Shown: one piece after another, positions 39,001 to 42,000 of the stretch | Layout: each line of letters starts with the position of its first letter | Position numbering within the stretch: position 1 is the stretch's first letter | Source of the DNA: a virus | Lineage: Duplodnaviria; Heunggongvirae; Uroviricota; Caudoviricetes | IMG/VR virus record: IMGVR_UViG_2531839664_000026 | Span: 1-43,124 of that record | Direction: 5' to 3' (one strand) | DNA length: 43,124 bases | Position numbers: made by a program

Positions 39001-42000
39001 TAATGGCATAGTCGGTTTTGATGAAGGCTGGAACGCCTGCCGCGCCGCCATGCTTCATGGTGCCGAACCTGTAAGCCAGACTTACAAGTTGAACGAGCTG
39101 TCGGGCAACTCTCTGGTAACTCCGGATGGTTGGATAAGCTGTAGTGAGCGAATGCCGGACGATAAACAGTATGTTTGGTGTTGGGGTAAGTCTTACGGCT
39201 GGACTGAGTGCGATACCTTCGAAGGGTATTACGATTGGTCGAGAAACAAATGGTGGGCAGTTACTGACGATGGGGAAGAACCGGCATCGAAAGTAACCCA
39301 CTGGATGCCGCTACCGGAGCCACCGCAGGAGGTGAAGTAATGAACAACTTAATGACAACTAAACAAGTCGCCGACTTCTGTGGCGTTTCAGTATCGACCG
39401 TTCTTCGCTGGAACAGCGTAAACAGGAGAACTGGCCAGAAATACAGGCCAGACTTTCCAGATCCTGATATTAAATCATGCCCAAATAAATGGGAATCACG
39501 CAAGATTTACAAATTTGCAGGAGTTATTGAGTAACGAGCATTAGCTCAGATGAGAGTTGGTACACCTATGGCACAGAGCTAAACCTGATCTGTTATATTC
39601 GCTCTGTGCCGGAAGTATGCCATATTTATTACATACAGTTGTCAATCTTTAAGACTAATTGTGATTGCATCTGGAAATCCAATTTGGCTATAGCACATAG
39701 TTTCGGTTATGAATAATTTTCTATCGATAAAATCAAGTACATCTTTTTTCGTGAGCCCCGTTAACATCGTCAATTTGTTAATTACATAATCATACCAATC
39801 ATGGTGAAGCATGTTTATATACATGTTAATATCAACTGCATCTTTCCTCCATGAATTATTCGGTATCAAATCTTCAGATAAAAATCCTCGTATTAAATCG
39901 CTTGCATAGGACATCCTAAGAAAAACAGAAAGAAAAAGCCTTACATTAACATGTGTAAAATTTGTAGATAGCGTCGAAGGAAACTCGTAAAACCGGTAGA
40001 TCAACCGACTTACAAACACAGCAGAGTCTATCGCATTTACTGGCAGTAATGTTCCGATGACACTTAATGCACCACTTATAACGAAGCCATTAGCAACAGA
40101 GGCATGAGAACCGCTTAGGGCAGATGTTAAACATGCACTCAGAATTACGATAGGAGGAATTCTTGCTATTTTTCTCAAACTCCAAGTGTCCACTTTATCC
40201 TCACCTATTATTAACCATCCATGACTCCCATTGCCATCATGGTTTCCATGACAATCCATAACAAGAATATGACCTTGATATTGATTTAGAGCATCAATAA
40301 ACTCAGCTTTCGATCTAACATCAATAATCTCGCAATCAAGATCTGGCATCTGTTTTTTAAATATCTCAATTGCGTTCTCTAATATGAACTTTAAGTGATC
40401 ATCAGGCTCAAAAGAACGTATAACTAAAACCTTTCTCAACTCAGATGCTTTTACTAAAACGCGCGGAAAAGCAGAGGCGCTCTGTAGAAGAACGTTACCA
40501 GGCGTAGCATTTATTCTTGATATCTCATGACTGAACATTATAGGTATGTTATTAAACCTAATCCAATCCAATGGTACATCACAAACAAAGGACAAATCGC
40601 TATAGTTTTTTCTTATATATGTTCTCAACTTGCAACCAAGGGCTCTTCGAATAACAGTATTGAATGCTTTAGATTTAGTGATGAATGCTTCACTATTTAT
40701 CCCAGAAGAAGTTGCAAGATCTTCAAGATTTTTCAAATAATTGGAGTAATGATTTATTGCATTTGGCAATCTTATTGCTGGGATTTTTTTATTTATGCTA
40801 AATAAAGTAATCGCAGCTGTTGTTAATCGCATTTCAGCGCGTCTTAGTGAGGTGAGGTAACGGAAAGCAGGACTTTTAAAAAGTTCTTTTCTATCTGAAT
40901 TTATATCAAGTCTAATTCCAGAATAGCCAGGATTCCTCAACACTCCATCAATAAGGAATTTTTTCTCAATTGTGGATAAATTTTCCGTTATTAACTCATA
41001 AAAGTCATTATTTTATCATATAAAAAAGAGTGCATACCCGGAGCAAAAAGTAAGACTTCCGTTGGAAGTGGTATATCTAATTCCTTTAAACATTCGGTGT
41101 ATGCATCAACGCTATGAAGTATTATTTCTATAAACTCTCTTTTGCTACTACCATCTTTAATTCTTTTTGGTGGAGATAGCATATAGCCAAGTGATTCAAT
41201 TAACAACTCATTGGGTAGTGTTGAATTGTTAAGCGTCGATCTCCAAGGTGATTTATTAAATAAAGCCCCTCTTCGCTTCAACTTCGTTGATATTTTCTTT
41301 TCACTGTGATTTTTTCTTATTTTATCCTCAATGAATTTCAACCGAGAGAAGAGCACCTTATCAAATGAGTATATACTATTAATCTTATTAAGTGGTTGAT
41401 CAGCGCGTTTAGAATTGCAACAAATTATAGGTGGTATAGCAAAATGTTTTTTTAAAGCACAAACATACGAAAAATCTTCTTTAGCACAAAAAATTAAGCA
41501 AAATGGCGTTTGATAAATATTTGGTATTTTTTCAAGATTTTCTTTAGATATTAAAAAAATAGGATTTAGCCCGCTTAGAGTAGGCTGAAAGTTATCATTT
41601 TCATTGACAAAAATCTCACTAATTTCTTTTGGTGTTTTGGCCAATAAAAAAAGAATGTTGGATATCTCTGGGTTGAGGAGGCCAGTATCGAAACCTTGGA
41701 TTATGGTTTGTTCCCCAGTAGTAGGCATGATTACAACTTTAAGTATCGCCCCGTGTTCCTGTAACAGTTCCATCAAAAATCCTAATAAACAAATAAAAAT
41801 GTTATAATCAAAAACTGCAAGGATTAGCAAGCAATTCTTACAGTTTTAAGAAGGGGATTATACCGCAATATGCATAATTGCGTTCTGCCTATGCAAAATG
41901 TCAGTTCTAGTCTGAACAAGTACAAGTAACTATCGATTCAACCCTCTCCCACCACGCCTGGTAAGCTTTACGCTGTTCTTCTAAATAATCGCTCTTGTCA

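Follow-up and report, generated by a model that had tools for sequence, protein, structure and literature searches.

Borvo is a published defence system whose sole component is BovA. In the supplement of Millman et al. (10.1101/2022.05.11.491447), it is system SG178 from E. coli 403116, marked verified, and its 2569-nt clone encodes BovA, a 'CHAT protease' of 710 aa. Here we analyzed virus record IMGVR_UViG_2531839664_000026 (Caudoviricetes) over its full 43,124 nt, called the window below. It carries a frameshifted bovA allele at 39642..41773 on the minus strand (ATG 41773 to the stop at 39642-39644), which would encode 710 aa if one coding-strand A were restored. The intact gene at this locus is already known, as the type example of a defence system in the literature. 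We are highly confident that the locus is the known bovA and that this split copy is most likely a pseudogene whose loss of function is recent.

Borvo acts by abortive infection. The DNA polymerase of SECphi4 is toxic only in Borvo-carrying cells, and expression of the phage polymerase alone makes such cells die or stop growing. Phages T5, SECphi4 and SECphi18 escape Borvo through missense mutations located in the polymerase's proofreading cleft (10.1101/2022.08.27.505566). The mechanism is still termed poorly understood (PMC11348598). Our literature searches for mechanistic papers on Borvo gave the discovery and trigger studies and reviews only, with neither a structure nor a substrate. In the most likely scheme, the non-protease parts of intact BovA would keep the CHAT domain inactive until they sense the polymerase of the phage, or something that its activity produces. 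The CHAT protease would then be released and cleave host proteins, and growth would stop. In the split allele, one A of an A5 run is missing after codon 254, so that translation stops six codons later, and the protease part lies in another frame without a ribosome-binding site of its own.

The bovA gene and its frameshift

The locus contains two minus-strand open reading frames (ORFs). The N-fragment ORF spans 40991-41830 as called mechanically (279 aa, TTG start), or 40991..41773 from ATG 41773 (260 aa). The C-fragment ORF spans 39642-40943 (433 aa, GTG 40943), or encodes 396 aa from ATG 40832, the start used by the Prokaryotic Genome Annotation Pipeline (PGAP). Both ORFs were collinear on a single PADLOC model, BovA (Borvo, PDLC03831). 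The N fragment matched profile positions 3-263 of 720 (E 9.8e-49), and the C fragment matched positions 286-715 of 720 (E 2.5e-183). An intact sister allele (P0001) matched positions 3-715 with 798 bits. A preliminary description of this DNA had proposed a two-gene cassette with an upstream ORF of no recognisable motif and, around the protease, sequence of no nameable family. Both halves belong to the BovA model instead. Because they match the same profile collinearly and differ from intact alleles by a 1-nt homopolymer deletion between them, the two ORFs are halves of one gene.

A three-way DNA alignment of the window, an O103 allele and an O145 allele contained one indel, at 41011-41014, and six substitutions elsewhere. 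Base-by-base reading of the frameshift site (41011..41014) gave a T4 run on the plus strand (A4 in the coding strand), compared with T5/A5 in the intact alleles. The frame shifts after residue 254, where SFLYDK-NNDFYELITEN becomes SFLYDK-IMTFMS-stop. The N fragment consists of BovA residues 1-254 and six out-of-frame residues (IMTFMS) before its stop. The C-terminal frame is open directly after the site and reads as native sequence (NNDFYELITEN, preceded by two stops). The single unbroken frame of about 710 aa that is a feature of the Borvo family is thus missing from the window. Frame-repaired translation gave 710 aa with a single terminal stop, and reading of both frames found no second lesion in the window bovA. 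The N fragment terminates 47 nt upstream of GTG 40943. Neither this GTG, which a GGAG directly adjoins, nor ATG 40832 is preceded at useful spacing by a Shine-Dalgarno-like sequence. No canonical slippery heptamer (X XXY YYZ) was found at 41011-41014, and programmed frameshifting was rejected on this ground.

The comparison with the SG178 clone covered its first 399 nt and the first 399 aa of its protein. Every one of the 399 nt shown agreed with the minus strand of window 41907-41509, a match that runs from just past the integrase stop across the intergenic region into bovA. A clone of 2569 nt counted from 41907 would reach to about 39340, where the excisionase-like gene starts. Over the 399 aa shown, the verified BovA and the repaired window translation agreed at 397 positions; the differences were L126Q and S388R. 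The BovA profile match and the 399 identical nucleotides place the locus as that of published Borvo, and the undescribed variant suggested earlier gives way to a described system.

Intact BovA has four parts. Its N-terminal alpha/beta domain, which is poorly conserved, is followed by a helical region, the CHAT protease (His509/Cys548) and a helical C-terminal region. The last three make up the C fragment. The CHAT domain is the best conserved part of the family, and no other Pfam domain was found in BovA even at E up to 10. Its core lies at 39999..40313 on the minus strand (residues 211-315 of the 433-aa ORF, residues 488-592 of the intact protein), and PF12770 scored 27.6 bits against a cut-off of 24. 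The caspase-like (CHAT-type) protease of the preliminary description was confirmed by this match; the other profile named there, Peptidase_C14 (caspases and metacaspases), gave no family match.

In 65 full-length homologues, the invariant residues were D507-C508-H509-G510, S546, C548, T550 and G555-S556-H557-A558-S559. The codon of the predicted catalytic His509 (DCHG) is at 40248..40250 on the minus strand, and the residue stands directly after strand 503-508 in the AlphaFold 2 model. The codon of the predicted catalytic Cys548 (ILSAC) is at 40131..40133 on the same strand; the residue follows strand 542-545, and its alignment partner in the Csx29 CHAT chains from PDB is the ILGAC motif. His509 precedes Cys548 by 39 residues, in caspase order. 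Of the His-Cys dyad proposed earlier, the cysteine of VILSAC is the invariant Cys548, but the histidine of GNGSHGW is residue 518 and is not conserved. A second invariant motif, GSHAS with His557 (residues 555-559, window about 40098-40112, minus strand), lies nine residues past Cys548 in a loop of lower confidence (predicted local distance difference test, pLDDT, about 62).

The AlphaFold 2 model of the N fragment had a pLDDT of 82.9 and a generic alpha/beta fold, with low confidence at residues 240-260 in the isolated fragment. No gasdermin or recognised effector fold was found in the N fragment. In the model of intact BovA, the domains were packed confidently (predicted template modeling score, pTM, 0.91).

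Distribution of split and intact alleles

The genome survey comprised 5,426 complete E. coli genomes, and the bovA locus was present in 32 of them. The split allele occurred in nine complete genomes with 100% identity to the window; where the name gave a serotype, it was O121 or O121:H19. Intact alleles were found in at least 21 other E. coli genomes, including O103 and O145:H28 strains, as a single 2133-nt coding sequence for a 710-aa CHAT-domain protein. These intact alleles (at least 21 records) were 99.4-99.8% identical to the window and one base longer. The locus measured 2367 nt in the window and the nine identical genomes, and 2368 nt in the genomes with intact alleles as well as in phages cdtI and Ayreon. 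In O121 genomes, the split halves are annotated as 'hypothetical protein' and 'CHAT domain-containing protein'. The exact fragment proteins are on record from 358 contigs (260 aa) and 359 contigs (396 aa). These records show that the deletion is an allele fixed in a much-sequenced clone, rather than a mistake in a single assembly.

Phages cdtI and Ayreon have the same locus with an intact bovA in an int-bovA-xis module. In both, intact bovA is labelled only 'hypothetical protein' (cdtI orf33, NC_009514, L009 3103-5235, 710 aa; Ayreon, MF807953, 26841-29208). In phage cdtI, bovA is near the cytolethal distending toxin genes, which sit across int.

For the family search, the C fragment was used as the query at full coverage. 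It returned 288 relatives, and 120 clusters were listed. Among the listed clusters, nearly all were full-length, about 690-760 aa, and they came from Enterobacterales, Vibrio, Pseudomonas, Xanthomonadales and metagenomes. Distant homologues matched the BovA model end to end. Four short relatives (P0010, P0023, P0024 and P0055, 418-471 aa) resembled stand-alone C fragments, and P0023 and P0024 shared 60% identity and the same start position. For P0010, P0023 and P0055, the N-terminal part is encoded directly upstream in another frame. For P0024, the frame can be followed upstream until an in-frame stop close to the end of the contig, which lies 120 nt before the gene call. A conserved two-gene Borvo variant made of these four was rejected, because the DNA reading revealed a separate accident in each. 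The candidate two-gene clade P0023/P0024 dissolved on inspection.

Frameshifted homologues were called either as two genes or as one truncated gene. The frameshift lies in an A7/T5 run in Salmonella Javiana, in a G8 run in Pantoea dispersa, and near an FLI..G motif in a metagenome. These three independent homologues lie at L004 4180-6320, L005 56-2187 and L007 4136-6257. The break position shared by the short relatives is largely explained by the search query, which was the C fragment at full coverage. Judged from their DNA, the short relatives are products of sporadic decay of an AT-rich, homopolymer-rich gene and not a conserved split. Homopolymer-driven decay seems common in the bovA family.

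Probable loss of function and the alternatives

The split bovA fixed in the O121-type clone is, on the sequence evidence, most likely a recent loss-of-function pseudogene. Loss of function is inferred because Shine-Dalgarno sequences before GTG 40943 and ATG 40832 and a slippery heptamer are all missing. Several points weigh against this reading. The frame breaks behind the N-terminal domain, in what resembles a linker (the stretch of low confidence at residues 240-260 of the isolated fragment), and both fragments are otherwise undamaged. The two chains might conceivably reassemble non-covalently, as the intact model packs its domains confidently. Identity of the window with the SG178 clone beyond the 399 nt and 399 aa shown is presumed from intact alleles 99.5-99.8% identical, which limits the identification. 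That Borvo senses the polymerase, releases its protease and attacks host proteins is our inference as well.

A split allele that is still alive is unlikely, though it is the alternative to which we would give the largest share. The 260-aa N fragment would act as the sensor and associate non-covalently with a separately translated, re-initiated CHAT fragment, so that polymerase-triggered abortive infection is kept as a two-chain Borvo; or the free CHAT fragment would act alone as an untethered protease with altered regulation, its trigger or threshold changed. A single lesion between domains would suit such a form, with both frames otherwise intact and 99.5-99.8% identical to working alleles, as would the persistence of the split allele in a successful clone (about 359 contigs). 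If it held, the split O121 allele would be a natural experiment indicating that the sensor and protease modules of Borvo are separable. However, neither start of the C fragment has a Shine-Dalgarno sequence at useful spacing, the N stop is 47 nt upstream of the GTG, and residues 255-277 would be lost (255-314 if ATG 40832 is used). Salmonella Javiana, Pantoea dispersa and a metagenome have genes split near the same point, which might also seem to favor a functional split, but these are different frameshifts in different homopolymers (A7/T5, G8), the pattern of random decay. They cluster only because the C fragment was the query at full coverage, and the candidate two-gene clade P0023/P0024 did not survive inspection.

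The remaining explanations are much less probable still. That the source genome truly has A5 and an intact bovA, with A4 a sequencing or assembly artefact, is very improbable. Homopolymer-length errors are common in long-read assemblies, but 4-5 bases make a short run for an error of this kind. Exactly this sequence also recurs in nine complete assemblies that were produced independently, by different laboratories and from different sample sources, and about 358-359 contigs carry the fragment proteins. Equally little weight falls on recoding or phase variation, in which ribosomal -1, transcriptional or replicative slippage on the A run would let some molecules or cells regain full-length BovA. 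The lesion does lie within a homopolymer, and a -1 shift on GAT AAA A would recreate the native sequence exactly (YDK NND). Yet A4 is much shorter than tracts that slip at useful rates, the X XXY YYZ heptamer is missing, the Lys tRNA would face UAA in the -1 position, and all nine complete genomes of the clone carry A4 and none A5. The model of the preliminary description, a two-gene module whose upstream effector (gasdermin-like or other) is cleaved and activated by the downstream CHAT protease, has hardly any chance of being right. Its CHAT domain is real, and protease-plus-effector layouts exist in other defence systems. The effector-protease pair was rejected on the fused single-protein architecture of the intact alleles; the supposed partner effector is the N-terminal part of BovA, with a generic alpha/beta fold and no gasdermin. 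The pseudogene reading stays well ahead of all of these.

Prophage context and comparison with known systems

The host element is a cdtI-like temperate prophage inserted beside yjjG, with bovA as cargo between int and xis. The tyrosine integrase (41907..43124, minus strand; Pfam Phage_integrase, Arm-DNA-bind_3 and Phage_int_M) marks the prophage end and lies outside the Borvo system. In complete genomes, yjjG is found beyond it. The integrase is upstream of the bovA ORFs on the same strand and convergent only with the plus-strand operon on the xis side. On the other flank is an excisionase-like helix-turn-helix (HTH) gene (39340..39534, plus strand), which has weak HTH_17/MerR matches, is convergent with bovA and serves as context only; its phage cdtI counterpart is annotated as excisionase. 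GC content was 0.342 at 39642-41773, 0.451 in the integrase, 0.467 in the genes to the left and 0.511 in the whole window. The preliminary description was right about the low-GC stretch of two minus-strand ORFs at 39642-41830 (0.342 against 0.511), about its cargo slot between the xis-like gene and the integrase, and about a defence gene with a caspase-like protease there, which turned out to be Borvo. It called the integrase convergent; relative to the two ORFs, the integrase is co-directional and upstream.

The upstream intergenic region of bovA (41774..41906, minus strand) is within the native-promoter fragment cloned for the verified Borvo. It holds a perfect TATAAT upstream of the bovA ATG, seen by eye only. 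A promoter and terminator scan of the bovA locus found sites no more numerous than in shuffled sequence. Between the bovA stop and the excisionase-like gene is an inverted repeat (39558-39622). Its 25-nt arms are 76% complementary, with a 10-bp core that pairs perfectly, GGCACAGAGC/GCTCTGTGCC. It may function in regulation or as a terminator in both directions, and the terminator scan left it uncalled because it has no T tail. To the left of xis, 37804-39340 on the plus strand encodes a YfdR-like HD-domain 5'-deoxynucleotidase (187 aa when the ORF is called mechanically from GTG) together with DUF551 proteins of 120 aa and 206 aa. Phage cdtI has the same CPS-53/KpLE1-like early-left set.

In a comparison with NZ_CP028110.1 (L008), the window's structural half (1-25000) best matched another chromosomal prophage of the complete O121 genomes, with 99.4% identity and 94% coverage. 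In strain RM8352, the bovA prophage beside yjjG is shorter and interrupted by several IS3-family elements. From these two prophage comparisons, we deduced that the window is either another assembly or a mosaic or intact version of the bovA prophage.

Flanked by the Q antiterminator side and a DNA methyltransferase (25414-26472, minus strand), two overlapping plus-strand ORFs at 27091-28552 (308 aa and 182 aa, overlap 28004-28017) point against the late-regulatory genes around them. Neither had a Pfam or PADLOC match, and O121 genomes list both as 'hypothetical'. The pair may form a further cargo cassette, less explained than bovA. Rfam matches in the window, taken above the gathering score, were AgvB anti-GcvB small RNA (24116-24177, plus strand), STnc100 (24178-24367, minus strand), tRNA Arg-TCT (25141-25217), a tRNA with a CAT anticodon (25298-25373, tRNA-Ile in RefSeq), C4 antisense RNA (34771-34858, minus strand) and isrK (34883-34959, minus strand). 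This set (24116-25373 and 34771-34959) is typical of lambdoid prophages of enterohemorrhagic E. coli.

As a known gene in a probably broken copy, the locus has little discovery value. Its use lies elsewhere. With the split halves labelled 'hypothetical protein' and 'CHAT domain-containing protein', defence censuses may miscount Borvo in O121-type Shiga toxin-producing E. coli. The intact-allele model and the invariant residues, including His557, could guide mutagenesis of intact Borvo.

The BovA protease is a clan CD protease of the CHAT type, and no Borvo structure was found in PDB by sequence or fold. In the comparison of BovA with known proteases, gingipain RgpB ranked highest (18.1), followed by human separase (17.4), Csx29 TPR-CHAT (17.1 and 17.0), SAVED-CHAT (13.8), DdvA (12.4), and caspases and metacaspases (about 8-8.6). 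Separase and the gingipains belong to the clan CD cysteine proteases, and their caspase-like domain is an extended one. They share 11-13% sequence identity with BovA and have unrelated biology; the resemblance is one of fold only. Csx29, the TPR-CHAT protease of the type III-E 'Craspase', is a different protein. Its NCBIfam model NF041237 scored 15.9 bits against a cut-off of 300, the N-terminal part of BovA has no Pfam TPR and looks alpha/beta, and no Cas7-11/gRAMP, Csx30 or CRISPR array is beside bovA, whose neighbors are int, xis and DUF551 genes. Membership in Csx29 was rejected on the score and the absence of CRISPR neighbors.

Bacterial gasdermin-protease pairs and the SAVED-CHAT proteins of CBASS (antiphage signaling systems based on cyclic oligonucleotides) also differ from bovA, which has no separate effector gene, no gasdermin or SAVED domain, and no cyclase or CRISPR partner genes. 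The former were rejected for the missing separate gene of gasdermin fold, and the latter for the missing SAVED sensor fused to CHAT within a cyclase operon. Borvo SG178 itself differs from the window allele in the A5-to-A4 change, the truncation after residue 254 with the protease part in another frame, and the substitutions L126Q and S388R. The two share the same locus, the int-bovA-xis position as in phage cdtI, full-length profile coverage, and a CHAT domain with the invariant His and Cys.

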